64,000 nt of DNA from the NCBI GenBank assembly GCA_041740355.1, contig JBGSMD010000013.1, forward strand, positions 1-64,000, in the 5' to 3' direction. Numbering within the stretch: position 1 is the first letter of the stretch; each line of letters begins with the position of its first letter. Below the pieces are notes generated by a model, which was not told where the DNA came from, made no database searches, and worked only from the letters and a program-made list of their open reading frames with translations. The translations under genes were made by a program, and so were the position numbers. Below, one piece after another: positions 19,805-37,475 of this stretch. The stretch comes from Bdellovibrionota bacterium (lineage in GTDB: Bacteria > Bdellovibrionota_C > UBA2361 > CALJRW01).

Positions 19805-20132
19805 TCTGACAAATACTATAAATGAACTATGCTCAACTCTGGTAGTTTTTGCTTTCTTACATTAGTAAGCAAAAAAGTAATTTATTAACTTCAAAATTAA
19901 TAATTAAAAGCTTAAGTCCAAGTCTCAAAAATAAATTATATTACGGAGCCAGATATTTATAGTTTCATTAAATATTCTAAACAAAAGCATTAAGCAGCTA
20001 CTAGCCTTTGATGAAGTAGTAAGACTTTAAAAATGAAATCTTCTAATTGTTTATTAACGATAAAAAACTTTGTGGAGGTGGGGCGCTTTGTGTAGGCTAT
20101 AGTTCTAATAGAATTAATATTTTAATCTTTAC

Positions 20133-20929: not shown

Positions 20930-20966
20930 AAAGGTACTTAGTAAATGAAGAAAATGTTAGCTAAAA

Positions 20967-21659
20967 TTATTTTTTCTTAGATTTCTCTTTATTGCCTTTT
21001 CCTTTATTTTGCTTAGAAGGTTTTTTTTTGGCATTGCCATTTCCCTTAGATTTATTTTTAGCATGTTGAGGTTTGCTATTAGATTTAACTTTAACGTGAT
21101 TTTTTTGAATAATTACTTTAGGGTGTTTATTGCGAATAATTATCGACTTCTCAGGAGAGAGGTTATCTACAAATCCAATCATTTTCACTGTAGCTAGGGA
21201 AATTAACTCCTGATCCTGCCAGTTATATTGTTTGTATGATTTATTATTGTAATATTCCCAAGCCTTACTATAAGGTGGTCCATATTGCTGAACATCAGCA
21301 GTTGGATATAGAAAATACGGATCGATTCCCAGAGAAGAAAAAATGCTTCCCCATAACTGATTGTTGTTTCTTTGCTCAATAACTTGTGGCACTAAATTTG
21401 GATACTGCCGATAAATTTCCAATAATAAGGGAAGTTCATTTTGAGGAATGTTATTATACAAGTTTTGTGGAATTCCGTAGCGGTTGGAAAGTTCCGCTGA
21501 ATACAATTCAAGATTCCCATCTTTAAAGCGAATACCTGTCTCTTGAGCAGAAACCAACGTGCTGCAAAGTAGCACTAAGTGGCAAAGGAATAAAAATTGA
21601 ATTAATTTTTTTGAATGGAATTGAGTTTTCATGTGGAGAAACTTATTTCCAATCTCCAA
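20967..21659 (-). CDS. Secreted hypothetical protein with Lys/Gly/Asn-rich tail
   Basis: Signal peptide, YGPPYSKAW motif, basic C-terminus. Confidence 0.75.
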   Translation of the reverse strand: MEIGNKFLHMKTQFHSKKLIQFLFLCHLVLLCSTLVSAQETGIRFKDGNLELYSAELSNRYGIPQNLYNNIPQNELPLLLEIYRQYPNLVPQVIEQRNNNQLWGSIFSSLGIDPYFLYPTADVQQYGPPYSKAWEYYNNKSYKQYNWQDQELISLATVKMIGFVDNLSPEKSIIIRNKHPKVIIQKNHVKVKSNSKPQHAKNKSKGNGNAKKKPSKQNKGKGNKEKSKKK

Positions 21660-21718
21660 TTTTAACTATGATCTTTATCATATTCTTAAAAGTTATTAAC
21701 TCTACAAAAAACTTGTTG

Positions 21719-22060
21719 TTAAATCTTCTTTACGAATTCCGATTTAAGTTTCATGGCACCAAATCCATCAATCTTACAATCGATGTCATGATCACCATCC
21801 ACCAGGCGAATATTCTTAACTTTTGTTCCAACTTTTACAACGGAAGAAGTCCCTTTTATTTTTAGATCTTTAATTACAGTAACTGAATCTCCATCTTGGA
21901 GAACATTTCCATTGGCATCTTTAATACCCGCAGTTTCTGCAAGATTCTCCGACTCAGCTTTAATTAACCATTCATTGGCACATTCAGGGCAGACATACAT
22001 TAATTGATCTTCGTAAGTGTATTCCGAATTACATTTAGGGCAGTGAGGAAGTTCTGTCAT
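21719..22060 (-). CDS. phnA: PhnA/YjdM zinc-ribbon protein
   Basis: [14 protein letters not shown]...[38 protein letters not shown]. Confidence 0.95.
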
Positions 22061-22368
22061 ATTATTACTCTGGTAGAAAGCTTGGCAGCTTATAGATTGT
22101 CAGACCATATATAGATTAGAGTAATTGTAATAAAGATCAAGCAGTTGGGGGTATTCAGGGGGGCACATTAACAGATTTAAATCATCATCCAAATTCGGAT
22201 GAGTCATGACAAATCTCTCTTTGAAAACCATTCCAGTAATTTGGTTTAAATCATCTAATCAGTCATAGATTCAGCGATGGTGGAAGTTTTTTACGCTTTC
22301 TTTAAATTCTAATTGGTTTTTAGTATACTTGGAAAAAATAAAAATATTTTACTTAAGATGATGATCAA

Positions 22369-22722
22369 ATGGCATGGTATTTAGTTAAGATTGTGATTAC
22401 ATCAATTATTATTGTAGTAGTTTCAGAAATTGGAAAATTTAATTCCCTTATGGGAAGTTTATTAGCATCAATTCCACTGATTAGTGTTTTGGGTATGATT
22501 TGGATGTACCAAGAGCGAGTCCCTATTGTCAAGATTAGTGCACATAGTACCGGAGTATTTTGGATGGTTTTGCCAAGTCTTCCGATGTTCCTATTACTAC
22601 CTTGGTTATTGGATAAGCATGGTTGGAATTTCTATTCTAGTTTAGCAGTGAGCCTAAGTGTCACTATTTTGCTTTATTTCCTTACAGTGATGGTAGTAAG
22701 ACGATATGGAATATTGATTTAA
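22369..22722 (+). CDS. DUF3147-family membrane protein
   Basis: VSEIGK...LLASIPLISVL...VFWMVLPSLPMFL, about 4 TM segments. Confidence 0.85.
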   Translation: MAWYLVKIVITSIIIVVVSEIGKFNSLMGSLLASIPLISVLGMIWMYQERVPIVKISAHSTGVFWMVLPSLPMFLLLPWLLDKHGWNFYSSLAVSLSVTILLYFLTVMVVRRYGILI

Positions 22723-22776
22723 TGCAGCAAATTGCTCTAATCATTTAAACTAGACTATCCGATAGGTATTAAATGA

Positions 22777-23253
22777 TTGTTAAATTCAGAGATACAGTGG
22801 TATAAAATTTTTATGTTGAGTTACCAGAAAATTACAGCACGATTTATAGCTTATTGCTTTGTGGCTGTTTTATTTCTTTTTGCTAATCATTGTTTCTTAG
22901 AAGAAGCCTGTGCTTCTTTGGGTAAAGTTGATTTAGGGGGGCATCCTGTAAGTGATGAATCTAAATCGGAAAGCGATCCTTGCCATGATAATTCCTCAGG
23001 CTCTGAGAATGAAAGTGAAGCGTGTCCGATACTTGGGGTAAGTCTGCATAAATCAATTACCACTAGTCAAGTTTATAATGATCTAGTTGATTTCAGTTTA
23101 GAGTTTTCCAGTTGGTTGTTAGAGATTTCCCATACTCCTATTTCCTTAACTGATCATATAAAACCCTTAAGCGTAGAGTCCGATGATTTAAATAAGTTAG
23201 AGAATCTTTTTTCGGCATTAAGCTCGGCTCCACAAGCACCACCTCTTAGTTAG
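22777..23253 (+). CDS. Leader protein upstream of czcCBA (CzcI/DUF2946-like architecture), C-terminal APQAPP
   Basis: Hydrophobic N-terminal segment followed by NHC, PCH, CP, and ending ALSSAPQAPPLS*. Probable start is ATG 22813. Confidence 0.8.
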   Translation: MLNSEIQWYKIFMLSYQKITARFIAYCFVAVLFLFANHCFLEEACASLGKVDLGGHPVSDESKSESDPCHDNSSGSENESEACPILGVSLHKSITTSQVYNDLVDFSLEFSSWLLEISHTPISLTDHIKPLSVESDDLNKLENLFSALSSAPQAPPLS

Positions 23254-23302
23254 ATCACCAACTAATACTAAACCATATTATAATTTAAAAACGAGGATCC
23301 TC

Positions 23303-24559
23303 ATGAGTAGATATACTCCTGTCAGGTTCAAAATACTTGCTACATTACTAGTTCTGCTAGTATCGCAGGCAGCATTTTCTGAATCTGATTTACCAAATAA
23401 ATGTAAGACGGAATTGTCTTTTGAAGAGTTTCGAGCAATAGGACTTAAGAATAGTCCCTTACTAGCTAAGGTTGATAGTAAATTTGCAAAGCAGTTGGCT
23501 AGCGCCTTCGATTTAAAAGTCATGGCCAATCCTGAACTGGAGATCGAGAAAACTTTTACAGATATGGAATTAGCAGGCGCTAATGATTCTCAAAATACCG
23601 TGAGCCTTGGACAGAAATTAAGACTATCTGATTTTGGAAAACGGGATCGAGTTGCGGAGTTAATAAAAAAAGCTGGCAAAGTCGGAAAGGAAACTGAGAT
23701 TTTTGAACTCAGTCAGCGAATGAGAATGTTGTACTATCGTCTCTGGGCACTTCAAAAAACTGCCGAAGTTCTTCGACAAGGGGAGTCACGTGCCAAAAGT
23801 AAGCTTGGCTTGGTTAAAGATGCTGTCGCTAAGGGCCTCCTTTCTAAGGGTGAAGAAAAGTTATTTGAAGGAGAGAAATATCGTTTAGAAGCAAGTCAGC
23901 TAGGAGTGAACACTAGCATTGCACTTACTCAACATGAAATTCAAAAGAACCTGGGAATTTCATGTGTGGTAGCTAAGCTACCTCCAGTATCAGCTAGTAT
24001 TCCTGAGATAGAAGACTTATTGGAATTATCAGCAGAGAGCGAAATTAGTGAGCAATCCAGATTACAAATTTTGGATAAGTTAGCACTAGAGCAAAATCAG
24101 TTAGCTGAACTAGATTCTTATCCAGAGTTTACCCCTCGCTTAGTTTATCAACACACGAATGATGGGGGAGATTTCTTTGGTTTTGGTATCACCATTCCTT
24201 TGCCGGCTTGGAATCGTAATCAGTCTGATAAATTAAGAACGGAAGCAGAACTGAAGGAAACCGAAGCTCGAAAAAAAATGTTTGAGCCAGAAGCATTAAA
24301 GTCGCAGGTAACTTATTTGCAAGTTGCCAATGTTAATGCTCAAAAGCAATTCGCACTTTTTCAATCGAATGTAATTCCTTCCTTTACGGAAGCGTTAAAA
24401 ATTCAAGAAGATCTTTTTACTAAGGGCAAAGGAGATGTTTTACAAGTTTGGCAAGGATTAAGATTATTAAGTGAAGTTCAAGAACAATCATTAAAACTTT
24501 GGAGTAGCAATATCGCTGCTCGAATTCGCTTATCGTTACTAATCGGAGAGGAGATCTAA
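23303..24559 (+). CDS. czcC: TolC-family outer membrane factor of a heavy-metal RND system
   Basis: Signal peptide, NPELEI, GITIPLPAWNRNQ. First gene of the CBA operon. Confidence 0.88.
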   Translation: MSRYTPVRFKILATLLVLLVSQAAFSESDLPNKCKTELSFEEFRAIGLKNSPLLAKVDSKFAKQLASAFDLKVMANPELEIEKTFTDMELAGANDSQNTVSLGQKLRLSDFGKRDRVAELIKKAGKVGKETEIFELSQRMRMLYYRLWALQKTAEVLRQGESRAKSKLGLVKDAVAKGLLSKGEEKLFEGEKYRLEASQLGVNTSIALTQHEIQKNLGISCVVAKLPPVSASIPEIEDLLELSAESEISEQSRLQILDKLALEQNQLAELDSYPEFTPRLVYQHTNDGGDFFGFGITIPLPAWNRNQSDKLRTEAELKETEARKKMFEPEALKSQVTYLQVANVNAQKQFALFQSNVIPSFTEALKIQEDLFTKGKGDVLQVWQGLRLLSEVQEQSLKLWSSNIAARIRLSLLIGEEI

Positions 24560-26002
24560 ATGTTTATTCAATTTAAAAAAATCGGTTTACTGACAATCAT
24601 CCTTGCGATGATCTTTTTTGGTTTGAGTTGCAAGGGTGTAAAGCACCAAGATAATCATGCGGATCATCAAGAATCTGGGGAAGTTAAATCTACTAATGCT
24701 AAGGACAATCATGTTGAGCACGATGACCATGCCGGACATGAAGATGAAAAACACGAGGATCATGATGACCATGGAGATCACCATGATGAGAAAGTAGTTA
24801 AGTTAGAGAATCATGATGATCACGAGGACCATGGAGGTCATGGAGGTCATGGAGATCATCACGAAGAAGAGGAAGAGGTTAAGGGAGAACATGGTGGACG
24901 TCTCTTAGTAAAAGAAGATTTCACTTTGGAATTGGCTATTTTTGAACAAGGTGTTGAACCACAATATCGAGTCTATGGTTACCAAGATGGGGAACTAGTT
25001 CCTGCCAAAGATTTAGAAGTTAAAGTTCAATTAAAACGACTTGGCGGAGAGGTTAATAATTTTACATTTACAGCTGTGGGTCAATTTTTAAGTAGTGATC
25101 AGATTGTTACTGAACCGCATTCTTTTGATGTTAAAGTTGAGGCTCAGTATCAAGATCAATCTTACGAATGGGAATTTGAATCTTATGAAGGTCGAACTAC
25201 TATTGCTGATCAAGTGGCAAAGCAATCAGAAATTAAAATTGAAAAAGTGGGGCAGCAGATTATTAAATCAATGATTGATGTCCGCGGGAAGATTTTACCA
25301 AGTGAACATCGAATTGCTCATATTGTTCCCAGGTTTTCAGGTATCGTAAAAGAAGGCAAGAAGCATATAGGGGATCCTGTAGAGAAAGGAGAAGTCTTAG
25401 CAATTATTGAAAGCAACCAAAGTTTGCAACCTTATGAAGTGCGCTCGCAGATTGCGGGAACAATTATTAATGGTCATTTAATTGTTGGAGAATATGTTCC
25501 TGAGAATCAGTGGGTCTATATTGTTGCTGATTTATCAGAAGTCTGGGCAGATTTTTTAGTTCCAATTAATCAGCGTCATTTAATTAAGAAAGGGCAATCA
25601 GTAACACTCACAACTTCTGACAAAGGAAGTTTTGCAGGAAAAATCTACTACATTGCTCCATACTTAGATGAAAAAACTCAGTCACAGTTAATCCGAGTAA
25701 TCATACCAAATAAAGAAGGACAATTACTACCGGGCATGTTTGTCACAGGTAGCATTGAAACTGAAGAACAAATGGCCAAACTCGCAGTAAAAAATTCAGC
25801 CATCCAACGCTTTAATGATTGGCAGGTTGTTTTTGCAAAACATGGTGAGGTTTATGAGATAAGACCAATAGAGTTAGGAAAAAGTGATGGGGAATGGACG
25901 GAAGTACTCTCGGGACTAAAAGCCGATGAAGAGTATGTTACAACAAATGCTTTCACTGTGAAGGCTGACATTATGAAATCGGGTGCTAGTCACGATCATT
26001 AA
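24560..26002 (+). CDS. czcB: RND membrane fusion protein with His-rich N-terminus
   Basis: Lipobox GLSC, His/Asp/Glu-rich tract, GEHGGRLL, EPHSFDV, C-terminal KSGASHDH. Confidence 0.92.
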   Translation: MFIQFKKIGLLTIILAMIFFGLSCKGVKHQDNHADHQESGEVKSTNAKDNHVEHDDHAGHEDEKHEDHDDHGDHHDEKVVKLENHDDHEDHGGHGGHGDHHEEEEEVKGEHGGRLLVKEDFTLELAIFEQGVEPQYRVYGYQDGELVPAKDLEVKVQLKRLGGEVNNFTFTAVGQFLSSDQIVTEPHSFDVKVEAQYQDQSYEWEFESYEGRTTIADQVAKQSEIKIEKVGQQIIKSMIDVRGKILPSEHRIAHIVPRFSGIVKEGKKHIGDPVEKGEVLAIIESNQSLQPYEVRSQIAGTIINGHLIVGEYVPENQWVYIVADLSEVWADFLVPINQRHLIKKGQSVTLTTSDKGSFAGKIYYIAPYLDEKTQSQLIRVIIPNKEGQLLPGMFVTGSIETEEQMAKLAVKNSAIQRFNDWQVVFAKHGEVYEIRPIELGKSDGEWTEVLSGLKADEEYVTTNAFTVKADIMKSGASHDH

Positions 26003-26022
26003 TTAGTTTTGAAGTTTTCAAT

Positions 26023-29000
26023 ATGTTTAACTCAATTATTCGTTTTTCCATTCAATATCGCTATTTAGTTTTAGTGCTCACATTGCTCAGTATGTTCTTG
26101 GGAATTTATTCCTATAAACATCTAAGAATTGATGCTGTGCCAGACATTACTAATGTTCAAGTACAGATTAATAGTGAGGCAGTTGGCTACTCACCCTTGG
26201 AAGTTGAGCAACGGATTACTAACCCGATGGAAATTCTTTTAGCAGGAATACCTGGATTAGAATATTCGCGTTCACTCTCGCGTTATGGATTATCTCAAGT
26301 GACGCTAATCTTTAAAGATGGGACTGATATTTATTTTGCACGGCAACTTGTTTCTCAAAGGCTGCAAGAAGCAGTTAGTCAATTGCCGGATGGCATAGTT
26401 CCTTCTCTTGGACCAATTGCAACAGGGTTAGGAGAGATCTTTATGTTCACTGTGGAAAATTCAGTGCGTACAAGATCACATCGAAGCTTGCAAGAGTTAA
26501 GAGAGATTCAAGATTGGATTGTAAAGCCACAGCTCCGAACAATTCCTGGAGTTATTGAAATAAATTCGATCGGGGGTGCTTCCAAACAATATGTGATCAC
26601 TCCTGATTTGGAGCGTTTACGGGGATATGATCTAACTCTTGATGATTTAACAGTTGCCATTGCCAAGAATAATTCTAATGTTGGTGCCGGATTTATTGAG
26701 CAAAATGGTGAACAATTATTAATTCGCGTTCCTGCGCAACTTGATAATCCAGAGGAGCTTTTAGATATAGTCGTCGGCATACACGAAAGTATTCCAGTCT
26801 TAGTAAAGGACTTAGCAAGTTTAGAAATTGGATCCGAGTTGCGAACTGGTGCCGCTACCGAAAATGGCCGAGAAGTAGTTTTAGGAACTGTTTTTATGTT
26901 GATCGGTGAAAACGGTAGGGAAGTCTCAGGATTAGTAAGCGAGCGAATTAAGCAAATAGCGTCGTCATTACCGGAGGGTGTAATTATTAAACCAGTTTAT
27001 GATCGAACAAATTTAGTAAACTCTACAATTGTTACCGTTCGTAAGAATTTAATCGAAGGTGCGCTGCTTGTAATTGTAATCTTATTTTTAATGCTAGGAA
27101 ATTTTCGGGCAGCATTAATCACAGCCTGCGTGATACCACTCTCGATGCTGATTACTATTTTTGGAATGTCCAGTAGCAAGTTAAGTGCAAATCTAATGAG
27201 CTTAGGGGCGTTAGATTTTGGTCTCATTGTAGATGGGGCTGTGATTCTTGTTGAAAACTGTACTCGCCGTTTAGGAATGTTGCAACATCAACTGGGAAGA
27301 TTACTCACAAAGGAAGAGCGCTTAAATGTAATCTATCAGGCTTCCACTGAAGTTCGCCAAGCAACACTCTTTGGTGAACTAATTATTATGATTGTTTATG
27401 TTCCAATTCTAACACTAACTGGGATTGAGGGTAAAATGTATCACCCGATGGCATTTACAGTTTTATTAGCACTTGGGGCCGCATTCATCCTTTCTTTAAC
27501 TTTTATTCCCGCCGCGGTTGCAGTTTTTATGACTGGTAAAGTGAAAGAAAAGGAAGGGGGCCTTTTACACATATTGCAAAAAACTTATCAGCAACTACTT
27601 AAATTTTTGCTTCAAAAGCCATTTATTACAGTTAGTATTTCCGTAGTTATATTTTTTCTATCACTAACAATTTTTAATAAGCTGGGATCAGAGTTTGTAC
27701 CTTCACTGGATGAAGGAGATATTGCTATGCACGCACTAAGAATTCCTGGGACTTCTTTGCAGCAATCAGTTGAGATGCAACATAAACTCGAGAAAGCAAT
27801 TAAAACTGTTCCCGAAGTAAGTAATGTTTTTGCGAAGATTGGTACTGCTGAGATTGCCAACGATCCGATGCCACCAAGTGTTGCTGATGGATTTGTGATG
27901 TTAAAGCCGCGCTCGGAATGGAAAAACCCACGTAAACCTAAAGAAGTATTAGTGTCAGAAATCGAAGAAATAGTTCAAGCCATTCCAGGGAATAATTATG
28001 AATTTACCCAGCCCATTCAAATGCGTTTTAATGAACTAATTGCTGGTGTTAGAAGCGATGTCGCGGTAAAGATTTTTGGTGATAATCCAGACGTTTTACT
28101 GGAACAAGGTGATCGAATACGAGATTTACTGGCCAGTGTGGACGGTGCCTCGGATGTTAAATTGGAACAAATTACCGGATTGCCAGTAATCGTTGTTAAG
28201 CCAAATCGTGAAAAAATGGCTCGACTTGGACTGAATGCTAGTGAAGTGCAGGAAGTAGTCCAAACGGCATTTGCTGGAAATCATGTTAGTGAATTCTTTG
28301 AAGGGGATCGTAAATTTCCAATTATGGTTCGACTATCTGAAAAGGATCGCAATGATATTAATTCAATTCGTTCGCTTCCAATTCCACTTCCGATTGAAAA
28401 TGAAGATCACGGACACTTAATCGAAACAATTAATTCTGATTTGAAACCGGAACTATCAGAACGATCTTATGTCAGATTAAGCGATATTGCGGAGGTTAGT
28501 ATTGTGGAAGGGCCTAATCAGATTAGCCGTGAGGATGGCAAAAGACGTGTGGTGGTAACGAGTAACGTTAGAAATAGAGACTTAGGTTCTTTTGTTGCGG
28601 AGGCTCAAGTTAAGATTGCCAGCGAAATAAAACTACCAGCAGGCTATTGGTTAAAGTGGGGTGGGCAGTATGAAAACCTACTTTCAGCACAAGCAAAATT
28701 GATGATTGTGATTCCATTAGTTCTGCTGGCAGTTTTTCTGTTAATTTATATTACGCTCCATTCCATTCGTGATTCTTTGATTGTTTTTGTGGGAGTTCCT
28801 TTTGCTTTATCAGGAGGTATCTTTGCACTTTGGTTAAGAGGTATTCCATTCTCAATTTCAGCCGCAGTTGGTTTTATTGCATTATCAGGAGTAGCTGTTT
28901 TAAATAGTCTGGTACTTGTTTCTTTTATCAAAAAGATTCTGTTAGATGGTGTCGATGCAACAAAGGCAATTGTCGAAGGGGCTAGTTCGCGATTACGTCC

Positions 29001-29193
29001 AATCTTGATGACGGCATTAGTCGCATCTCTTGGTTTTATCCCGATGGCCATTTCCGTTGGTACTGGTTCTGAAGTGCAAAGGCCACTTGCCACTGTTGTG
29101 ATTGGTGGGATCATATCTTCCACAATCTTAACACTAATAGTTGTCCCGTGTTTATTGGCAATGGCCTATCGCTTAAAAAAGAAGAAAGAGTGA
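26023..29193 (+). CDS. czcA: CzcA/CusA-family heavy-metal RND permease
   Basis: IDAVPDITNVQVQIN, NLMSLGALDFGLIVDGAVILVEN, EVQRPLATVVIGG. Confidence 0.96.
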   Translation: MFNSIIRFSIQYRYLVLVLTLLSMFLGIYSYKHLRIDAVPDITNVQVQINSEAVGYSPLEVEQRITNPMEILLAGIPGLEYSRSLSRYGLSQVTLIFKDGTDIYFARQLVSQRLQEAVSQLPDGIVPSLGPIATGLGEIFMFTVENSVRTRSHRSLQELREIQDWIVKPQLRTIPGVIEINSIGGASKQYVITPDLERLRGYDLTLDDLTVAIAKNNSNVGAGFIEQNGEQLLIRVPAQLDNPEELLDIVVGIHESIPVLVKDLASLEIGSELRTGAATENGREVVLGTVFMLIGENGREVSGLVSERIKQIASSLPEGVIIKPVYDRTNLVNSTIVTVRKNLIEGALLVIVILFLMLGNFRAALITACVIPLSMLITIFGMSSSKLSANLMSLGALDFGLIVDGAVILVENCTRRLGMLQHQLGRLLTKEERLNVIYQASTEVRQATLFGELIIMIVYVPILTLTGIEGKMYHPMAFTVLLALGAAFILSLTFIPAAVAVFMTGKVKEKEGGLLHILQKTYQQLLKFLLQKPFITVSISVVIFFLSLTIFNKLGSEFVPSLDEGDIAMHALRIPGTSLQQSVEMQHKLEKAIKTVPEVSNVFAKIGTAEIANDPMPPSVADGFVMLKPRSEWKNPRKPKEVLVSEIEEIVQAIPGNNYEFTQPIQMRFNELIAGVRSDVAVKIFGDNPDVLLEQGDRIRDLLASVDGASDVKLEQITGLPVIVVKPNREKMARLGLNASEVQEVVQTAFAGNHVSEFFEGDRKFPIMVRLSEKDRNDINSIRSLPIPLPIENEDHGHLIETINSDLKPELSERSYVRLSDIAEVSIVEGPNQISREDGKRRVVVTSNVRNRDLGSFVAEAQVKIASEIKLPAGYWLKWGGQYENLLSAQAKLMIVIPLVLLAVFLLIYITLHSIRDSLIVFVGVPFALSGGIFALWLRGIPFSISAAVGFIALSGVAVLNSLVLVSFIKKILLDGVDATKAIVEGASSRLRPILMTALVASLGFIPMAISVGTGSEVQRPLATVVIGGIISSTILTLIVVPCLLAMAYRLKKKKE

Positions 29194-29269
29194 TATTTAA
29201 AAGTTAACTTACTGATTTAAGTTAATGAGTTGACGTATTGAGAATAAAATATTTTATTTAGGAGAGAAC

Positions 29270-29644
29270 ATGAGAAACTACAAAAGATATTATACATTAA
29301 CCAAATTTATTCCTATTTTGCTTATAATTTTATTTATGCAAGTTAGTAGTGTTTGGGCAGAGGGTCTAACAAGAGCAGAAACAAAATATACTTGTATGGT
29401 TAATAATACAGTTTTTACTAGAGATCAGATTCCGACGGTTGTGGAAGGTCGAATCTATTATGGCTGTTGCGAAATGTGTGCCGATAAACTAGCAAATAAC
29501 CCAGCGGTAAGAAAAGCAATTGATCCAGTTAGTGGTAAGGATGTTGATAAAGCAACTGCTGTAATAGGTGGAGATAGGTTAGGTAAAGCCTACTATTTTG
29601 AAAATGAAGAGAATTTTAAACTATTTAGTCTCACAAAGGGGTAG
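29270..29644 (+). CDS. Secreted YHS/TRASH-like metal-binding protein
   Basis: CMVNN, YYGCCEMC, DPVSG, YYFENEEN. AGGAG SD. Confidence 0.8.
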   Translation: MRNYKRYYTLTKFIPILLIILFMQVSSVWAEGLTRAETKYTCMVNNTVFTRDQIPTVVEGRIYYGCCEMCADKLANNPAVRKAIDPVSGKDVDKATAVIGGDRLGKAYYFENEENFKLFSLTKG

Positions 29645-29695
29645 TCTAAATTAAAAGGCTTAACTTGTTTACTTGTTAAGACCACTCAGCACCTT

Positions 29696-31084
29696 TTACT
29701 TCGGTGGTAAAGGTGCATTGCTCCCATCACTTTTAATATTGTTATTTCTAAGTTCTTCTTCCGAAGCAAGCATAGATATCGTTCCTTTTGGAGCTTCATA
29801 CCAACCTGGATCAGAGTAATCTTTTAATTGATTTCTAACCTTAAGAATTGTGAACATGCCTCCCATTGTAATATAGTCATATTTACCTCTTGCGCCAACC
29901 ATTGGAATACTATTTTCAGGAATTGGCATTCCCATTTCGCCCATTTCACCCATCCCATGTTGTCCCATTGTCATATAGTTCGGAAGTAGTTTCTGTATCT
30001 TAGAATCTAGACCTTCTGAATCTATCCCAATCATATTTGGAAATTTATGTCCCATTTGGTTCATGACATGATGGGTCATATGACAATGCATTGCCCAGTC
30101 ACCAGGATTATCAGCAATAAACTCAATAGTTCGAGTGGATCCAGTTGGGACAAGCACCGTTGTTTCTGGCCACTGTCCGGCCGCAGGAATTTCTCCTCCG
30201 TCAGTTTCGGTAACATTAAAATAATAACCATGAAGGTGAATAGGATGATGATCCATTGCAGAAAGATTACCAAAGCGAATACGAATACGATCGCCAATTT
30301 GTGCAACTAATGCTTCTGTACCAGGGAATGCCTTAGCATTCATAGTCAATACATTAAAATCATTCATAACATTAGGATTAGGTCGCTCTGTGCCTACCTC
30401 GATTGCCCACTCGTGTAACATAATAGCAAAATCTCGATCCGGTCGCTCTTCTTTTGGGATACGAGGATGAATCACAATCATACCAACCATACCCATACCC
30501 ATTTGGGTCATCTCATCATGATGTGAATGATACATAAATGTGCCATGCTGTTTTAGATCAAACTCATACATGTAAGTTTCACCACTTAAAATTGCTTTCT
30601 GGCTTAATCCTCCAACCCCATCCATTCCACTTGGTAAAATAATCCCATGCCAATGAACAGTCGTTGGCGCTTTTAGTTTATTTGTCACAAAGATTCTTAC
30701 ACGATCTCCTTCGACAGCTTCGATAACTGGTCCATGAACAGAGCCATTATAACCCCAACAATGTGCTTTAAGTCCAAGTGCAAATTCATGATAAACTTCT
30801 TCTGCGACTAAATGGAAAACCTTCACACCATCAATAATCTTAAATGGCAAAGCCCAACCATTAGGTATAACAACTGGTTGATAATCTTTACCAGACTCAG
30901 CAGGTTGTAACTGCGAAGCAGAATCGGTGATTGTTGATGACATTTCAGTCTCAGCTAGGCCCTGTTTCAAAACCATCATACTACCAGCTAGTGCGATTGC
31001 AGCGCCTCTTAACGCTTGTCTTCTGGAGATAGGTTGATCAAGGATAGTTTCATTATTGATTTCATTCTTATTTTTAATTACCAT
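29696..31084 (-). CDS. Tat-exported multicopper oxidase
   Basis: SRRQAL Tat motif, HWHG, YHSH, HPIHLHG, HCHMTHH, Met-rich tail. Confidence 0.95.
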   Translation of the reverse strand: MVIKNKNEINNETILDQPISRRQALRGAAIALAGSMMVLKQGLAETEMSSTITDSASQLQPAESGKDYQPVVIPNGWALPFKIIDGVKVFHLVAEEVYHEFALGLKAHCWGYNGSVHGPVIEAVEGDRVRIFVTNKLKAPTTVHWHGIILPSGMDGVGGLSQKAILSGETYMYEFDLKQHGTFMYHSHHDEMTQMGMGMVGMIVIHPRIPKEERPDRDFAIMLHEWAIEVGTERPNPNVMNDFNVLTMNAKAFPGTEALVAQIGDRIRIRFGNLSAMDHHPIHLHGYYFNVTETDGGEIPAAGQWPETTVLVPTGSTRTIEFIADNPGDWAMHCHMTHHVMNQMGHKFPNMIGIDSEGLDSKIQKLLPNYMTMGQHGMGEMGEMGMPIPENSIPMVGARGKYDYITMGGMFTILKVRNQLKDYSDPGWYEAPKGTISMLASEEELRNNNIKSDGSNAPLPPK

Positions 31085-31086
31085 TT

Positions 31087-32511
31087 TTAATGCTCCTCAC
31101 TATTTTTTGCTGAATTATTTAAAGCGACATTACTTAAACTCACTCCATTCGTTTCAATCATCTTGCCAGCAATAACTTGCTCCAAATCTGTTTTTGCTAA
31201 CCAATAATTCTCTAATGCCTTAATGTAAGAGATAATCATTTCAATTTGGTCTTTTTTTGCTTGTAGCAATTGTACTGCCCCAATCTGCATTGCATTATAT
31301 TGAAGCTGTGACTCCTGAACTATCTTATTCTCAAGTGGCAAGATAATTTTACTAAGATAATTAACTTGATCTTTTGCCGCTATCAATGTTGCATGTGTAC
31401 GTCTGACTTGAGAACGAATCTCCACGGCAGTTCCCGCATACCTTTCAAAGGAGCTTCGAATGATTGCTTCAGTTGACGCAATAATTGGCTGCCCCTGATT
31501 AAAGATTGGAATTGGAATTGATACGGCAGGACCAAAACTCCATTCGCCATTATCTGCTTCACGCTCCGCAATCGCCCCTAATGATAAATCTGGAAATACC
31601 TCAAAAGGAATTGCTACATTTAGCGAAGCAACAGTCTTCTTAAGTTCCCATCGAGCGGTATTTAATTCCAGGCTATTGATTAATGCTTGCTTCTCTAAAC
31701 CAATTAATTCAATTTCATGTTTATCTGGTTCTGCTAACTTACTAATTGCTTTCCAATTGGTATCGATTCCCCATAGTCCAAGGAGGGTATTTAACTCTTC
31801 ACGTTTTTTAAAAACTTCAATCTCTGCTTGTCGTAATGTGATTTTTGATTCTTCATAAAGCGCGCGCTCCTGTGTTAAATTTAATTCTGTAATATTTCCA
31901 GCCTCGCGGAGTTTTTTTGATATCAAATAAGTTGAGTTAGTTGCTTCCAGCACATTCTTGAGTAATAGTAACGTTTGCTCTGCTCCCTGGTAGGCATAGA
32001 ATGTTCGTTTTACGTCAGTTGAAAGCTTGATAACCTGCTCCACGACACGCACTTTAGTTGCCTCAAACTCTGCTTCAGCTACTTTTTTTCTAAGAGGAAT
32101 AAAAAGAACTTCAATAAAGTTTTGTAATATTGCAGTATCAAGTCCGACCCCACCTCCCTTATGAAATCTAAATTCAGCATCAAAAACTGGATTACTTAAG
32201 AGTCCAGCTTTAACTAAGTCTGCTTGAGCAATATTTAAATCTTCATATATTGCTTGTAGGTTTTGATTATTAAGCAGTGCTAACTGAACGGCTTCGTTAG
32301 CTGTTATTTTATTTGCTAAGATCTTTTTGATTTCAAGATCTAGCTGTTGATCTTCTGATGTTCCTTGTTTCCAATGAATTTTTTGACCAGTTCTAGTTTT
32401 AACAGCTTTAGTTACATCATCGAATCCAACTCCCCTTTTCAAACTGACACAACCAGAAAAAAACAAAAATGAAATAATAATTAAAGTAGAATAATTTAAT
32501 TTAATGTTCAT
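31087..32511 (-). CDS. TolC-family lipoprotein of the copper resistance operon
   Basis: Lipobox FSGC, AVQLALLNN, AGLLSNP, SIPIPIFNQGQ, YNAMQIG. Confidence 0.92.
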   Translation of the reverse strand: MNIKLNYSTLIIISFLFFSGCVSLKRGVGFDDVTKAVKTRTGQKIHWKQGTSEDQQLDLEIKKILANKITANEAVQLALLNNQNLQAIYEDLNIAQADLVKAGLLSNPVFDAEFRFHKGGGVGLDTAILQNFIEVLFIPLRKKVAEAEFEATKVRVVEQVIKLSTDVKRTFYAYQGAEQTLLLLKNVLEATNSTYLISKKLREAGNITELNLTQERALYEESKITLRQAEIEVFKKREELNTLLGLWGIDTNWKAISKLAEPDKHEIELIGLEKQALINSLELNTARWELKKTVASLNVAIPFEVFPDLSLGAIAEREADNGEWSFGPAVSIPIPIFNQGQPIIASTEAIIRSSFERYAGTAVEIRSQVRRTHATLIAAKDQVNYLSKIILPLENKIVQESQLQYNAMQIGAVQLLQAKKDQIEMIISYIKALENYWLAKTDLEQVIAGKMIETNGVSLSNVALNNSAKNSEEH

Positions 32512-32986
32512 TATTCATTCCTCCATGGTTCATACCCTGATGGCTGGGACTAATTGGTAAATTTTTTAATCTAGGCAATTCTGATTTTACAATTTTATTG
32601 ATCAACATATGACACTTTGGGCAAGTATCTTTAGGGTCATGGGAAGTTATGTCAGGGTGCATCGGACAAGAATATAATATTGAATTAATAGTAGATCCTT
32701 CTTCATTGTTTTGATTCCTCTTATTCTCTTCCAAAGGACGATCTATCATAGAATTATCTACTAATTTACTTCTCTTAGAATAGATCGGATCAGCTGTAGA
32801 TACATCTAAAGCAGAAGATTGAGACATATACGCACCATCGCCTCTTAATGGATTACCAGGGCTTTCTAATGGCACTGTTTCTAATAAAACAGTTTTTGTG
32901 CAAGCGAATAACAAAATTGTAATAGCGAATATAATAAATTTACTATTAGATATGATATTATACTTTAGAAAATTTTTTGATTTCAT
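32501..32986 (-). CDS. Lipoprotein with heavy-metal-binding domain
   Basis: LFAC lipobox, YSCPMHP...CPKCHM, and a His/Met tail. Confidence 0.88.
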   Translation of the reverse strand: MKSKNFLKYNIISNSKFIIFAITILLFACTKTVLLETVPLESPGNPLRGDGAYMSQSSALDVSTADPIYSKRSKLVDNSMIDRPLEENKRNQNNEEGSTINSILYSCPMHPDITSHDPKDTCPKCHMLINKIVKSELPRLKNLPISPSHQGMNHGGMNNEH

Positions 32987-33046
32987 ACTTGAATTTATTT
33001 AGCTAAAGGAAATTTAAGGGATAAAGAATACAACCCTACTGGAAAA

Positions 33047-33454
33047 CTACAGAAGAATTTGAATTGGAGGTGCTTGAGGTGCAAATGAAAGGCTAAGAAT
33101 AAAAGTACTTAATAACGATGGTGGTCCAGTCGTTAATTTTATAGTCTTAAAAAGATATGAAGGAACTAACTCAAGTACTTCAATTGATCTATAAATGTTA
33201 AATAGATTATTAATTTTTGAAATTTCAAAACTTACATGCGTACTTTGATCTGACTTTATAAGTGGTTGGCAACAGGAACTTTTTTCACATTTTTGACGAT
33301 GCCCTGTATCCTTACTTTTACCATGACAAGGAGAATGCTGATTAGTGTCTTCCTTAACTGGAAGAAAAGCATCATTTAGAATACAATGATTACCCCAAAT
33401 AATTAATGAGAAGATAAAAACACAGGAAAAACACTGTCTAATTACTAAGTGCAT
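33047..33454 (-). CDS. Leader protein upstream of the copper operon, C-terminal APQAPP (paralog of 22777-23253)
   Basis: Hydrophobic N-terminal segment followed by NHC, PCH, CxxxxCC, and ending LSLSFAPQAPPIQILL*. Confidence 0.8.
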   Translation of the reverse strand: MHLVIRQCFSCVFIFSLIIWGNHCILNDAFLPVKEDTNQHSPCHGKSKDTGHRQKCEKSSCCQPLIKSDQSTHVSFEISKINNLFNIYRSIEVLELVPSYLFKTIKLTTGPPSLLSTFILSLSFAPQAPPIQILL

Positions 33455-33536
33455 GTTGATAATTTAACATAGTAAAGGCTAGGCAACAACGATATTTTAA
33501 AGCTAGTTAATTAGCATTTTATTTTTGCATGATAAT

Positions 33537-34265
33537 TTATAAAATAATCATTACAAATGCCATTCCTCCCATTAACAGATCTTCAACAAGAGTGACTTTT
33601 GTCATCGGAAGTTTTAATGCCGTGCCTAAACAAGCACACTGAAAACTTTTTTTGGTTCTTAGTGCTTTAATGACACCAACAGATCCAATGACCATTAAAA
33701 AGAGTGTTGTCAAATTAACATATAAAAGATCTGATAAGATAAAATATAAAACGCCTAGAGTTAATTCTATAAATGGATAAGCAAGAGCATAAAATTTAGA
33801 TTTCATAGCTAAAATATCATACGTAGCATAAGCTTCCGCAAATCCATTTAAATTAAGCAATTTAAACAGCGAGAAAAGGATAAAGAAACCACCCATAAAA
33901 TTGATCATCAGGGTGTGTATTGAGAAATTGTCTGATAAGTATGCTCGAAGTATTACGGCACCAAATAAATATGTAGCTATGACAAATAATGGCACTAAGC
34001 TATCACTGGGAGATGGGGGGATTTGGTTAATTATTTCAGTCTTTGGTTCGTCGAGTTTATCTATTTCTGTGACTTGATACGCACCAAGACTTTTAACTAT
34101 TTTTTGGATTGCGTCGATTCTAATTTCACTATCTAAAGATACTTCACCGTATGGAGGATCTAAGTTAACAATAACCTTTTCAAATCCACCTCTCTGAAGT
34201 CCTGCAGTAATTTTATTAACACAAGTATTACAGGTCATTCCAATAATTTTAAATTGCTTTTTCAT
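33537..34265 (-). CDS. HMA domain + MauE/DoxX-type membrane protein
   Basis: GMTCNTCV, FMGGFFILFSLFKLL, YPFIEL, QCACLGTALKLPMTKVTLVED. Confidence 0.9.
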   Translation of the reverse strand: MKKQFKIIGMTCNTCVNKITAGLQRGGFEKVIVNLDPPYGEVSLDSEIRIDAIQKIVKSLGAYQVTEIDKLDEPKTEIINQIPPSPSDSLVPLFVIATYLFGAVILRAYLSDNFSIHTLMINFMGGFFILFSLFKLLNLNGFAEAYATYDILAMKSKFYALAYPFIELTLGVLYFILSDLLYVNLTTLFLMVIGSVGVIKALRTKKSFQCACLGTALKLPMTKVTLVEDLLMGGMAFVMIIL

Positions 34266-34283
34266 AATTTACTCTTGATAGAA

Positions 34284-34302
34284 TATACCCCTATGGGGTA
34301 TA
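34284..34302. promoter_or_regulatory. CsoR/RcnR operator
   Basis: Perfect palindrome TATACCCC-TAT-GGGGTATA in the 70-bp gap between csoR and the divergent copper operon, matching the C-tract/G-tract CsoR operator type. Confidence 0.9.
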
Positions 34303-34335
34303 ATAAATGCATACGTTTAGTTCCACAAGGCTTCA

Positions 34336-34638
34336 ATGAAGAAAAAAAATTGTTGTGATAAGAATGGTATGATTCACCCAGATCATGCTATTCAGCTCAA
34401 TCGGGTTAAGCGAATTGCTGGACAAGTTGGTGGGATTAAGAAAATGATTGAAGAAAGACGCTATTGTCCCGATATCATTAATCAAATTAGCGCAGCTCAA
34501 ACGGCTCTTCGTTCACTCCAAGCAGTTGTCCTTCAGGAACATCTTAAGCAATGTGTGGTTGACGCATTTGAAGCGGGCAGTCAAAAAGAACGACATATAA
34601 AGATTGCGGAGTTACTCGAGTTAATAAGAAAAATTTAG
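34336..34638 (+). CDS. csoR: CsoR/RcnR-family metal-sensing repressor
   Basis: RVKRIAGQVGGIKKMIEERRYCPDIINQISA...HLKQCV (Cys, His and Cys ligands). Confidence 0.93.
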   Translation: MKKKNCCDKNGMIHPDHAIQLNRVKRIAGQVGGIKKMIEERRYCPDIINQISAAQTALRSLQAVVLQEHLKQCVVDAFEAGSQKERHIKIAELLELIRKI

Positions 34639-34777
34639 TTTATCTTAACTATTATAGATAATAGAAACTTTTACTACAATCAACCTTCGGAATAGTATAC
34701 AGTAACTCAAAAAAACAATTGCCAAAATGTTTTTTGAAATACTTGTTGGTTTTATTTTAAGATAGTTAGGATTATGT

Positions 34778-37363
34778 ATGCCTAGAAAACCAAAAATCGA
34801 AAGATTCAATGACAGTGTACTAACTAAGTATCAAATTTATAATAGTATTTTTTTAACTTTACCATTTGATGAGATTACAAATACTGGAGTGCTACTCCCC
34901 TTATTTAGTGAGTTTTGTGAAGAAGGATATAAAATAGGCAATAATCCAACTGAGATAATCGAAGATTTTTTTAGCAAGTACTGTCATGAGTATACCGAAG
35001 CAGAGAAAGATGATTTATTATTTAGATTTATACAATATATCGAACGACAAGTAGTTTTATTTGATGCGGTTGAAGATGCTGCCTTTGCTATTGTCAATAA
35101 TTTAGACGGCAAGGGGACATTACGAGACATTAAAGAAGATGCTGATGCCCAAGGTCGGATTAATGAACTTCGAAAATATTTAGAAGATTATAAAGTTAGA
35201 ACTGTACTTACGGCACATCCTACTCAATTTTATCCAGGGGCAGTTTTAGGTATTATCACAGATTTAACTCAAGCTATTAAAGAAGATGATTTTTCATTAA
35301 TTAAAAAATTACTATCCCAACTCGGCAAAACTCCTTTTTTTAACAAGCAACAACCGACACCCTATGATGAAGCTGTTAATCTCATTTGGTTCTTAGAAAA
35401 TGTTTTCTACCATTCGGCGAGTATGATTTATCAGTATATTCAAAAAAATATCTACGATGGAGATTTAATAGATAATCAAATCGTAACTCTCGGTTTCTGG
35501 CCAGGGGGGGATCGTGATGGAAATCCTTCTGTCAACAGTGAGACTACTTTAAAGGTTGCAGAAAGACTCAAAACTACCTTACTCAAAAATTATTACCGTG
35601 ATCTTCGTAAGTTAAAAAGAAGAATAACATTTGATCAAGTGGACCATTTGGTCGCTGAGCTTGAGGCGAAGCTTTATCAGAATAGCTATCAATTAACGGA
35701 CGACACTAGTTTTGATGCCAAGGAATTTCTAATGACATTATTGAGGATTCGAGAAATCCTAGTTAGCAAACACCAATCCTTATTTATTCAAGAACTTGAT
35801 GATTTAATTGGCAAGGTAAAGATTTTTGGTTTTCATTTTGCATCACTTGATATTCGACAGGATTCTCGAATTCACCAGCAGGTATATCAGCAATTAGTGC
35901 TAGAAAGTCAGAAACTTAAACTAGATATCTTTCCAAAAGACTATTGTGATTTTGAAGATCAACATAAAATTAATTTTTTAGGAAATATTAAAGCAAAAAT
36001 TAGATCGGATATTTTTCAAGACGAAATGCTTCGCGATACAATAGCTAGTGCTGAAGCGATGAAAATAATTCAATCGCAGAATGGGGAACTAGGCTCCAAC
36101 CGCTACATCATAAGTAATACACAAAGTGCACTAAACGTAATGGAAGTTTTAGGTTTTATGCAATTAATTGGTTGGGATTTGCCAACGATTGATATTGTTC
36201 CACTTTTTGAAACAATCGATGATTTGCACAATGCTGAGCAAATTATGGAAGAACTATATACTAATAAATATTACGCCGAGCATCTTTCCCTTCGCGGGAA
36301 AAAGCAAACAATCATGCTGGGGTTTTCAGATGGCACCAAGGATGGTGGATACTTGATGGCTAATTGGGGAATCTATTTGGCAAAAGAAAGATTAACTGCA
36401 CTTTCTAATAAATATCATGTAGATGTTTTTTTCTTTGATGGACGTGGTGGTCCTCCAGCTCGTGGTGGCGGAAAAACGCATCAATTCTATGCTTCGCAAG
36501 GTCCAACTATTGCTAGCAAGGAATTGCAACTTACTATTCAGGGACAAACGATTAGTTCTAACTTTGGTACTTTAGATTCCTGTCAATATAACTTAGAGCA
36601 GTTACTGAGTGCAGGAATTGTAAATCAGATGTTTAGTAATAAGGATAGTGCTCTGAACACTAAAGATCGAGAGACAATGCAGCGTTTGGCAGATCTAAGT
36701 TATCAAGCATACCAAGATTTTAAACATCACCCCAAATTTATGCCTTATTTGGAAGAACTAAGTACACTTAAGTATTACGCTAAAACTAATATTAGTAGTC
36801 GTCCTGCTAAACGTGGAAATTCTAGTAAATTAAATTTTGAGGATTTGCGTGCCATTCCTTTTGTGGGGAGTTGGAGTCAGCTTAAACAAAATGTTCCGGG
36901 GTTTTATGGTGTAGGTTTAGCAATTGAGAATTTTATAACAAATGGCGAGGAAGATTGCATCAAAGAACTTTTTAAGAATTCTGCTTTTTTTAGAACTCTT
37001 TTAGAAAATACAATGATGAGTTTAACAAAATCTTTTTTCCCGCTAACTGCGCACTTTCAACAGGATCCAGAGTTTGGCGAGTTTTGGTCCTTAATCCACG
37101 AGGAGTTTCAAAGAACAAAGAAAATAATTTTAGATTTATTTGGATTTGAAAACTTAATGCAAAATACCAGAGCTGTAAAAGCATCGATTGATACTCGAGA
37201 AAAAATTGTTCTGCCCTTAGTTACGATCCAACAGTTTGCTTTAAATAAAGTTAAAGAGTTACATGCAGCTCAAAGCCAGCAAGGAGAGCAGATCGAGACG
37301 TATGAGAAAATGATTACTCGAACCCTATTCGGGAATATTAATGCTAGTCGTAACTCTGCCTGA
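34778..37363 (+). CDS. ppc: Phosphoenolpyruvate carboxylase
   Basis: VLTAHPTQ, WPGGDRDGNP, MLGFSDGTKDGG, GRGGPPARGGG, LRAIPF, C-terminal RNSA. Confidence 0.97.
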   Translation: MPRKPKIERFNDSVLTKYQIYNSIFLTLPFDEITNTGVLLPLFSEFCEEGYKIGNNPTEIIEDFFSKYCHEYTEAEKDDLLFRFIQYIERQVVLFDAVEDAAFAIVNNLDGKGTLRDIKEDADAQGRINELRKYLEDYKVRTVLTAHPTQFYPGAVLGIITDLTQAIKEDDFSLIKKLLSQLGKTPFFNKQQPTPYDEAVNLIWFLENVFYHSASMIYQYIQKNIYDGDLIDNQIVTLGFWPGGDRDGNPSVNSETTLKVAERLKTTLLKNYYRDLRKLKRRITFDQVDHLVAELEAKLYQNSYQLTDDTSFDAKEFLMTLLRIREILVSKHQSLFIQELDDLIGKVKIFGFHFASLDIRQDSRIHQQVYQQLVLESQKLKLDIFPKDYCDFEDQHKINFLGNIKAKIRSDIFQDEMLRDTIASAEAMKIIQSQNGELGSNRYIISNTQSALNVMEVLGFMQLIGWDLPTIDIVPLFETIDDLHNAEQIMEELYTNKYYAEHLSLRGKKQTIMLGFSDGTKDGGYLMANWGIYLAKERLTALSNKYHVDVFFFDGRGGPPARGGGKTHQFYASQGPTIASKELQLTIQGQTISSNFGTLDSCQYNLEQLLSAGIVNQMFSNKDSALNTKDRETMQRLADLSYQAYQDFKHHPKFMPYLEELSTLKYYAKTNISSRPAKRGNSSKLNFEDLRAIPFVGSWSQLKQNVPGFYGVGLAIENFITNGEEDCIKELFKNSAFFRTLLENTMMSLTKSFFPLTAHFQQDPEFGEFWSLIHEEFQRTKKIILDLFGFENLMQNTRAVKASIDTREKIVLPLVTIQQFALNKVKELHAAQSQQGEQIETYEKMITRTLFGNINASRNSA

Positions 37364-37405
37364 TGTTACATAAGATGAGTCATTACTGATAGTTATCAAA
37401 ATAGT

Positions 37406-37451
37406 TGCAATTATTTTGCATTAGTTATATCTCTATTGCGAATTATTTGCA
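37406..37451. promoter_or_regulatory. Tandem palindromic operators (probable Zur boxes)
   Basis: TGCAA-TTATT-TTGCA (37406-37420) and TGCGA-ATTAT-TTGCA (37437-37451), upstream of the receptor-zur operon. Confidence 0.7.
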
Positions 37452-37475
37452 TTAACTCTTTTTGTAATTTGTTTC

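Follow-up and report, generated by a model that had tools for sequence, protein, structure and literature searches.

CutF of Rhodobacter capsulatus and CruR of Bordetella pertussis are the closest described counterparts of two small genes, leader A and leader B, located in a 64,000-nucleotide stretch of a Bdellovibrionota bacterium (assembly GCA_041740355.1, contig JBGSMD010000013.1, positions 1 to 64,000), hereafter called the window. Leader A (22813-23253, + strand) precedes a czcCBA-type efflux operon and leader B (33047-33454, - strand) lies within a copper operon. Together with a third copy in the same genome, they are read here, on the sequences and by analogy, as probable cis-acting metal-sensing leader peptides of the CutF/CruR kind, a reading held with moderate confidence. 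CutF, from the cutFOG operon, is exported, contains CxxxC, has a proline motif at its C terminus and is encoded immediately 5' of cutO, the gene of a multicopper oxidase. Copper in the periplasm lengthens a pause in its co-translational export, so that a stem-loop over the cutO ribosome-binding site melts and the oxidase gene is turned on in cis; EF-P normally relieves this pause (PMC9973294; bioRxiv 10.1101/2025.02.05.636593). A rule-based collection, gathered by iterative searches seeded with CutF/DUF2946, of proteins of less than 150 aa with a signal peptide and a PP in the last 15 residues comprised 5,334 "CutF-like" proteins in 29 clusters (Ozturk et al. 2023, PMC9973294). The commonest downstream neighbour of their genes encodes an outer-membrane efflux protein (OEP; CusC/CzcC), and CruR, CopL, CzcI, SilD and CusD are named among them (PMC9973294). 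The same paper describes CopL of Xanthomonas/Stenotrophomonas as acting in cis only and CzcI as a protein without a C-terminal proline motif (PMC9973294).

CruR (Bp2923), the prototype of Pfam DUF2946/PF11162, stalls at RAPP without copper, while copper relieves the arrest, Rho terminates transcription and the operon is switched off. The spacing of 45 residues between its CXXC and RAPP is conserved to 1-2 residues and functionally important, and its action needs neither EF-P nor a signal peptide (PMC9426467). Arrest peptides ending in related motifs are also found upstream of genes of the secretion machinery. In the secA leader uA_RQH_Myxococcales, Q86APP arrests translation in both the Ec and the Bs PURE system with fAP above 0.9, and the substitution Q86A weakens the arrest; arrest is lower in vivo, possibly through EF-P according to the authors (PMC10987492). 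This is a published experimental precedent for QAPP as an arrest core. A literature search on the motifs APNAPP, APQAPP, NAPP and QAPP gave Fujiwara 2024 as the only relevant report. The form NAPP is absent from the text of PMC10987492 and PMC12992588, and no published arrest test of it was found.

Leaders A and B, both real open reading frames (ORFs), are true paralogues: BLASTP aligns them over their full length with 28% identity (E 1e-6). Leader A ends exactly 49 nt before a czcC-like OEP gene (ATG at 23303) and leader B exactly 60 nt before the gene of a lipoprotein with a heavy-metal-binding HMBD motif (ATG at 32986). The ordered skeleton that the preliminary description had seen in both is confirmed. 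In leader A, of 146 aa, a hydrophobic helix ends in ANHC and is followed by EEACAS, PCH, a Ser/Glu-rich stretch and C-P, and then by a variable spacer of about 70 aa and the ending LSSAPQAPPLS-stop. In leader B, of 135 aa, the N-terminal helix ends in GNHC and leads to PCH, GHRQKC-x4-CCQP, a spacer, TGPP and, after exactly 18 residues, LSLSFAPQAPPIQILL-stop. The hexapeptide APQAPP is encoded at 23227-23244 in leader A (GCT CCA CAA GCA CCA CCT) and at 33065-33082 in leader B (GCA CCT CAA GCA CCT CCA). The proposed pause would fall on the Pro-Pro codons (23239-23244 and 33065-33070, respectively), 2 residues from the stop in leader A and 5 in leader B. The third copy (G000:C52:3696-4097, - strand) is 61% identical to leader B and sits on contig C52 in a duplicated csoR / HMA-MauE / leader / lipoprotein / TolC locus. 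In a six-frame translation of the whole 3.27-Mb genome, AP[QN]APP occurs four times, three of them being the C-termini of leader A, leader B and the C52 copy. Between these copies, and across the loci of relatives, the motif is written in synonymously different codons, so selection acts on the peptide. The BLASTP match, the rarity of the hexapeptide and this synonymous variation together show that the shared skeleton is not due to chance. Neither leader is matched by any Pfam or NCBIfam model at E<=1.

The open frame of leader A does extend, as had been proposed, from a TTG at 22777 (158 aa), but its most likely start is the ATG at 22813, since all database orthologues begin there. The TTG is also the first triplet of a -35-like TTGTTA (22777-22782) within a promoter-like site (22777-22806, + strand), in which an 18-nt spacer is followed by an extended -10 element, TGg + TATAAA (22798-22806). 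This site, read by eye and not listed by a consensus scanner, is conserved in the sister species with its -35, its spacer, its -10 and the 6 nt to the ATG, while the flanking bases vary. As the promoter-like site ends only 6 nt before the start codon, it suggests that the transcript of leader A is leaderless or nearly so. No clear promoter comparable to it was found for leader B. Just 5' of leader A there is also a gene (22369-22722, + strand) for a 117-aa multi-pass membrane protein without a Pfam family; the same gene is found in the sister species (L032:1993-2346), 60 nt 5' of the orthologous leader, and it may be part of the leader A unit.

The leaders belong to a family without a Pfam or NCBIfam model. 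A profile built from seven sequences was searched against 1.84 billion representatives (E<=1e-3) and gave 32 proteins, nearly all of 124-171 aa. One match with nine short hits (P0028, 807 aa) was dropped, and the remaining ones are small proteins aligned end to end. With further relatives, the family comprises 62 distinct sequences; two more proteins ending in APNAPP (L015 and L018) are outside this number because the N-H-C site pattern skipped them. Full-length homologues share 20-84% identity and conserve motifs and lengths; conservation of the motifs had been a prediction of the preliminary description. The N-terminal hydrophobic helix ends in (A/G/T/S)-N-H-C, whose Cys is invariant in 33/33 rows of the alignment. 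It is often followed by (D/E)-A-(F/L)-A, then by C-H and a His-rich stretch. The second part of the Cys/His cluster is C-x3-G-C-C-Q-P in a B-like majority and C-P in A-like members, and some members have only His. Besides N-H-C, the best conserved part is the tail L-x2-S-L-x2-A-P-(N/Q)-A-P-P, i.e., the 13 residues before and including the PP, a pattern of conservation that matches that of arrest modules. The terminal PP is found in all 62 proteins, 1-6 residues (median 3) from the stop, and the residues that follow it vary freely. A conserved family thus exists, but calling it a QAPP variant holds only in part: the usual core is NAPP (42/62), with QAPP in 18, QGPP in one and RAPP in one (L026, which carries SPRAPP in the same position), so that [N/Q]APP accounts for 60/62.

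The distances within these proteins are also conserved. Of the 45 proteins with an earlier (T)GPP, 33 have it at exactly 18 residues from the last PP, and in 42 the distance is 15-22 residues. Between the Cys cluster and TGPP, the spacer keeps its length while its sequence varies. The last Cys precedes the PP by 62-72 residues in 38/62 members, the rest either having additional Cys close to the C terminus or lacking a further Cys. AlphaFold2, run with 43 sequences, predicts no globular fold (predicted template-modelling score, pTM, 0.30). It gives a helix at residues 2-30 with a predicted local distance difference test (pLDDT) value above 90, a short helix at 114-123 just before the tail, and a Cys/His region (31-70) without secondary structure at pLDDT of about 50-65, in which only residues 57-64 and 66-68 fall below 50. 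A lead from the ESM Atlas to DUF6769 (PF20558) of Bacteroidota remains no more than a lead, as PF20558 matched neither leader nor any of 33 relatives at E<=1; the Atlas also pointed to unnamed clusters of Verrucomicrobiota.

The family is present in 26/124 species genomes of the phylum of the window (E<=1e-3), or 18/73 when good-quality genomes are counted. A leader ORF was recovered in 23 of 28 loci from other genomes; the patterns used gave none in L023, L025, L027, L030 and L031, and L028 runs off its contig. In agreement with the expectation that homologues would precede genes of metal efflux, the gene that follows on the same strand encodes an OEP in 17 of 22 loci (one call, L029, being marginal: 21.2 bits, the cut-off being 22). 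It encodes an HMBD lipoprotein in one locus, a DUF5666-like small protein below the cut-off in another, and a product without a match in three. The gap to the next gene is 5-141 nt in these 22 loci. The upstream neighbours in 20 loci are mutually unrelated (TrbI, DUF2840, RibD_C, OmpA, an ABC transporter, hydrolases and others), so that the efflux cassette normally begins with the leader; HMA-MauE recurs as an upstream neighbour only at the B-type locus of the sister species. A search for related loci with the family alignment gave one further genome locus, in a metagenome-assembled genome labelled Deltaproteobacteria, where the cassette adjoins VirB4-like and other transfer genes, and nothing in the metagenome contigs. 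The leader and OEP cassette stands directly next to conjugative-transfer genes at L049:1-2017 (a VirB4/TrbE-like ORF, by eye) and at L009:3-1136 (TrbI, PF03743). From this adjacency in two genomes, the cassette is probably carried on mobile elements.

We infer from these features how the leaders could work. Each of them would be translated as the first or an internal gene of an operon for metal detoxification, and its N-terminal helix would insert into the Sec translocon. With the ribosome at the terminal AP(Q/N)APP, the conserved L-x2-S-L-x2-A-P-(N/Q)-A-P-P would occupy the upper exit tunnel and the Pro-Pro bond would form slowly. By that moment the Cys/His cluster, made up of the N-H-C that closes the signal helix on its outer side, C-H, the His-rich stretch and CCQP or C-P, would already be at the periplasmic face, fixed about 67-72 residues upstream of the Pro-Pro. 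Binding of Cu in B-type leaders, or of a divalent metal in A-type ones, would alter how strongly translocation or folding pulls on the nascent chain, and thereby the dwell time of the ribosome 2-5 codons before the stop. The different Cys sets may, as the preliminary description proposed, tune the leaders to Zn/Cd/Co or to Cu. A longer pause would then raise expression of the next genes, which are those of CzcC-CzcB-CzcA in one case and of the lipoprotein, the TolC-like protein and the multicopper oxidase in the other. EF-P is encoded in this genome, and the Q/N core is more likely to give a weaker, context- and EF-P-dependent pause than an arrest of the RAPP class, because the Arg of RAPP is irreplaceable in ApcA, ApdA, ApdP and SecM by saturation mutagenesis (PMC12992588). 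The direction of response proposed here, opposite to that of CruR, had been put forward in the preliminary description, which did not cite CutF. It is not new, because the CutF mechanism is published and CutF-like genes most often precede OEP genes (CusC/CzcC), and the idea is accordingly only partly original.

Several observations weigh against control by such leaders. The four-peptide Arg requirement just mentioned is one of them, and the Pro motif of CutF alone gave no stall in a LepB reporter (PMC9973294). The copper operon that contains leader B has a CsoR-type repressor, so a second sensor is not required there. A signal-peptidase site of the AxA type (small-x-small) follows N-H-C in just 37/62 members by a simple rule, leader B having AFLP. 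The other objections concern the step by which a paused ribosome would be read out, for which no general RNA signature was found among the tested loci. In the window, the spacers after the leaders fold no better than shuffled sequences (z -0.23 to -0.77 for A, +0.16 to +0.94 for B), and neither does the segment from the PP to the next start (z -0.64 and +0.94). Over 23 loci, the PP-to-start segments are weakly structured, with a mean z of -0.66 and 3/23 below -1.64. Folds from stop-9 to stop+42 in 21 loci give a mean z of -0.77 with 4/21 below -1.64 (L018 and L024 were left out, their spacers being of 11 and 5 nt). A CutF-type stem-loop hiding the next ribosome-binding site is thus a weak tendency across loci, not a rule, and is absent in the window. 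Pairing of the PP codons (CCNCC), as an anti-Shine-Dalgarno sequence, with the next ribosome-binding site was likewise rejected: over 16 loci, after exclusion of seven whose starts are non-ATG or doubtful, it ranked in the top 5% in three, and the median rank was 0.25. A Rho-type (rut-like) bias of C over G was rejected as well (307 C vs 274 G over 23 loci), since only the spacer of leader A is C-rich, and no terminator-like site was seen between leader and next gene in the window. There is, finally, little sign of kinship with the CruR family. PF11162 matches neither leader at E<=1 nor anything in the whole genome at E<=10, and among 33 relatives it gives two sub-threshold matches at E<=1, the best of 16.7 bits (E 0.013) against a gathering threshold of 23.7 bits. 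When the family is compared by profile (hhalign) with six DUF2946-like leaders from the phylum, the probability is 24% and the alignment covers the signal helix alone.

The failure to find an RNA element able to read out a stalled ribosome would be expected if the leaders were ordinary accessory Cys/His metal-binding proteins that act in trans, anchored in the membrane or periplasmic, like CzcI, CusF or a metallochaperone. Such proteins would work once they are made, for example by passing metal on to the pump or by regulating the pump through contact, and SLxxAP(N/Q)APP would be a docking, sorting or degradation tag. The strong conservation of the Cys/His motifs and the constant position beside OEP or efflux genes agree with this, and a small domain, folded or templated by metal, which AlphaFold2, run without metal, does not see, could explain the fixed lengths. 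On the other hand, the PP is always 1-6 residues from the stop and is followed by freely varying residues, and the spacer from the Cys cluster to TGPP keeps its length and not its sequence. No globular fold is predicted, and the same architecture is regulatory by experiment in CutF and CruR. An accessory function in trans is the main rival explanation, but a rather unlikely one. That the ORFs are chance open frames, or that what is conserved is an RNA element rather than a peptide, has nothing in its favour beyond the missing family annotation and is practically excluded. It is already refuted by conservation at the protein level, i.e., by full-length homologues with conserved motifs and lengths, by synonymous codon variation inside the invariant motif, and by the near absence of the hexapeptide from the rest of the genome.

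A further explanation accepts the stall but makes it a robust one: QAPP would be a simple variant of RAPP, which would short-circuit the peptidyl-transferase centre as in ApdA, ApdP and SecM independently of EF-P, and metal would release the arrest as in CruR, turning the downstream genes off. The core does have the form X-A-P-P, the SPRAPP of L026 occupies the same position, the QAPP of uA_RQH_Myxococcales gave an fAP above 0.9 in both PURE systems, and DUF2946-like R[A/G]PP leaders occur in the same phylum. Yet Arg could not be replaced in any of the four mutagenised RAPP-type peptides, the QAPP peptide is weaker in vivo, and 42/62 members carry NAPP, the form without a published arrest test. 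It also makes no physiological sense to turn efflux genes off as metal rises, and in this phylum R[A/G]PP leaders are followed by genes for TonB-dependent receptors in 3/7 loci and by an OEP gene in only 1/7. A robust, metal-released arrest is therefore improbable, and a metal-prolonged pause in cis is preferred to all these alternatives.

The R[A/G]PP leaders of the phylum are proteins of 103-127 aa with the layout CxxC...R[A/G]PP (L035, L036, L040, L041, L042 and L045). A PF11162 scan matches 12/124 genomes at E<=0.01, one of them above the cut-off. The contrast between the neighbours of the R[A/G]PP and [N/Q]APP leaders (OEP next in 1/7 vs 17/22 loci) is drawn from small numbers and related genomes. 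Membership of the A/B family in DUF2946 is not supported, since the hidden Markov models (HMMs) miss the family and the profile comparison stays at the 24% given above; the DUF2946 layout of CXXC and RAPP about 45 residues apart was not found either, as the members have no CXXC and their core is [N/Q]APP in 60/62. A bridging protein of 178 aa (L038) is nevertheless matched by PF11162 up to an internal ERAPP (E 9e-4), while the family HMM aligns that RAPP to TGPP and the tail ISSLSEVPTGPPSS to SLxxAPNAPP (18 bits in a nine-sequence search). Judging from this one sequence, the family may be a relative of DUF2946 with an added second pause module.

A wider and more doubtful proposal, drawn from the sequences, is that the leaders represent an undescribed family of transmembrane metal-to-ribosome transducers, separate from DUF2946 or only remotely related to it. 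Its features would be the His-Cys at the periplasmic end of the signal helix, a second Cys/His cluster about 68 residues from the pause site, and two proline sites (TGPP and AP[N/Q]APP) 18 residues apart. Metal would cross-link the anchored signal helix to the translocating chain, so that the pull is cancelled and the ribosome is parked a few codons before the stop. In this proposal, the two tail types of one phylum would have separate tasks: R[A/G]PP leaders, whose strong arrest metal would relieve, would guard importers, and exporters, the Zn/Cd/Co-type CzcCBA among them, would be guarded by [N/Q]APP leaders, whose weak pause metal would strengthen. If the leaders do act in cis, periplasmic metal sensing by nascent chains would extend beyond the DUF2946 family and beyond copper, and a CzcCBA-type divalent-cation pump without an adjacent two-component system would be controlled by a leader. 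The invariant tail, the proline pair 18 residues apart, the spacer of about 68 residues and the His-Cys of the signal helix would then be handles for the question of how a ligand outside the membrane reaches the peptidyl-transferase centre. For annotation, the family provides a rule and a name for small "hypothetical" genes that lack a Pfam or NCBIfam model and mark the starts of metal-efflux cassettes.

An 11-kb metal island of the window has leader A at one outer end and leader B at the other. On the + strand, leader A is separated by a C-rich, G-poor spacer (23254-23302, 49 nt with 11 C and 3 G, and GAGGA ahead of the ATG) from the czcC-like outer-membrane efflux protein gene (23303-24559; PF02321, OEP). 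A czcB-like periplasmic adaptor follows (24560-26002), with a His/Asp/Glu-rich N-terminal stretch and an HlyD_D23 domain; the NCBIfam model RND_mfp (TIGR01730) matches it above the cut-off, and the IhpB and CzcB/NccB models below theirs. Next comes czcA (26023-29193), a heavy-metal RND pump of the CusA/CzcA family (TIGR00914, 1467 bits) that contains DFG-x3-DGA-x3-VEN, which we take to be the signature of a divalent-cation pump. The operon ends with a small exported YHS-domain protein (29270-29644; 28.8 bits, slightly below the 30.3 that Pfam requires). In line with an earlier remark that no czcRS pair adjoins czcCBA, inspection of the ORFs of 20000-38000 showed no two-component genes.

The convergent copper operon, on the - strand, begins with a gene for an HMA (CopZ-like) domain fused to a MauE-type membrane domain (33537-34265). 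Leader B had been placed ahead of this operon; it is indeed directly 5' of the lipoprotein gene, but the HMA-MauE gene, 82 nt upstream, precedes it. Between leader B and the lipoprotein gene there is a 60-nt spacer (32987-33046) with no evident Shine-Dalgarno sequence. The lipoprotein-like protein with the HMBD motif (32501-32986; 22.6 bits, just under the cut-off of 23.6) is followed by a TolC-like outer-membrane efflux protein (31087-32511; OEP, 98.8 bits) and a multicopper oxidase (29696-31084; Cu-oxidase_3/_2, with the CopA-type NCBIfam model below its cut-off). Beyond the operon and divergent from it lies the gene of a CsoR/RicR-type metal-sensitive repressor (34336-34638, + strand; PF02583, 91 bits). 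Its promoter-like site, TTGATA-18-TATAAT at 34275-34304, scores 11/12 and holds within its 18-nt spacer a 7-bp inverted repeat, ATACCCC-TAT-GGGGTAT (34285-34301), which is also inside the control region shared with the divergent copper operon and presumably resembles a CsoR operator. On another contig of the genome, a 117-aa ORF with an N-terminal hydrophobic segment (G000:C46:113802-114155, + strand, the same as L050:1003-1356) ends in ...FTYSGRAPPVVA and stands 96 nt 5' of a gene for a 511-aa SulP-family transporter (DauA, sulP and BicA models, all below their cut-offs), after which an ORF resembles DabA/DUF2309 by eye only. This ORF may encode an RAPP arrest-peptide leader, here for a gene outside Sec.

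Compared with the described systems, CzcI of Cupriavidus metallidurans and CopL share with leaders A and B the layout of a small ORF, metal-binding or putatively so, directly 5' of czcCBA (CzcI) or a copper oxidase gene (CopL). CzcI differs by the published lack of a C-terminal proline motif, and no NCBIfam model matched A or B at E<=1. The RQH and RAPP-like peptides (ApdA, ApdP and uA_RQH_Myxococcales) are also short ORFs with an N-terminal localisation signal and a C-terminal X-A-P-P, and TGPP is also among the candidate motifs of the authors (PMC10987492). The rule R/Q/H-A/G-P-P agrees with the QAPP of leader A, leader B and the C52 copy, whereas the NAPP of 42/62 members is outside the published motif list. 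These peptides monitor Sec or YidC, precede secA, secDF or yidC and have no Cys/His cluster; in the A/B family the downstream genes are OEP or metal genes, with no sec or yidC gene among them.

With CruR, the A/B family shares a leader that is exported (putatively so in the A/B family) and poorly structured, with a Cys motif and an X-A-P-P about 3 residues from the C terminus that heads a metal-homeostasis operon. The tightly fixed spacing from motif to motif is a close parallel. CruR differs in preceding a TonB-dependent importer across a 162-nt C-rich spacer, while exporters follow here at 49-60 nt; the CruR arrangement recurs in those R[A/G]PP leaders that lie 5' of a TonB-dependent receptor gene (3/7 loci). 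As for CutF, the differences are a PPP core instead of AP(N/Q)APP, a CxxxC instead of N-H-C in the signal helix with C-H and CCQP or C-P, a distance of 45 residues from Cys cluster to Pro instead of about 67-72, the second TGPP 18 residues upstream in the A/B family, the lack of a detectable stem-loop over the next ribosome-binding site in the window, and the lack of a detectable sequence relation of the family to DUF2946. The similarities are a small protein, putatively exported in the A/B family, with a Cys metal motif and a PP near the C terminus, encoded just 5' of a metal detoxification gene; an operon that, for leader B as for cutF, includes a multicopper oxidase; and a metal proposed to prolong the pause and turn the downstream gene on. 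Leaders A and B are below 150 aa and lie just upstream of, and on the same strand as, the metal genes that follow, and the PP is within the last 15 residues in both of them and in 62/62 relatives, so that by the rule-based features of PMC9973294 the A/B family would qualify as "CutF-like".

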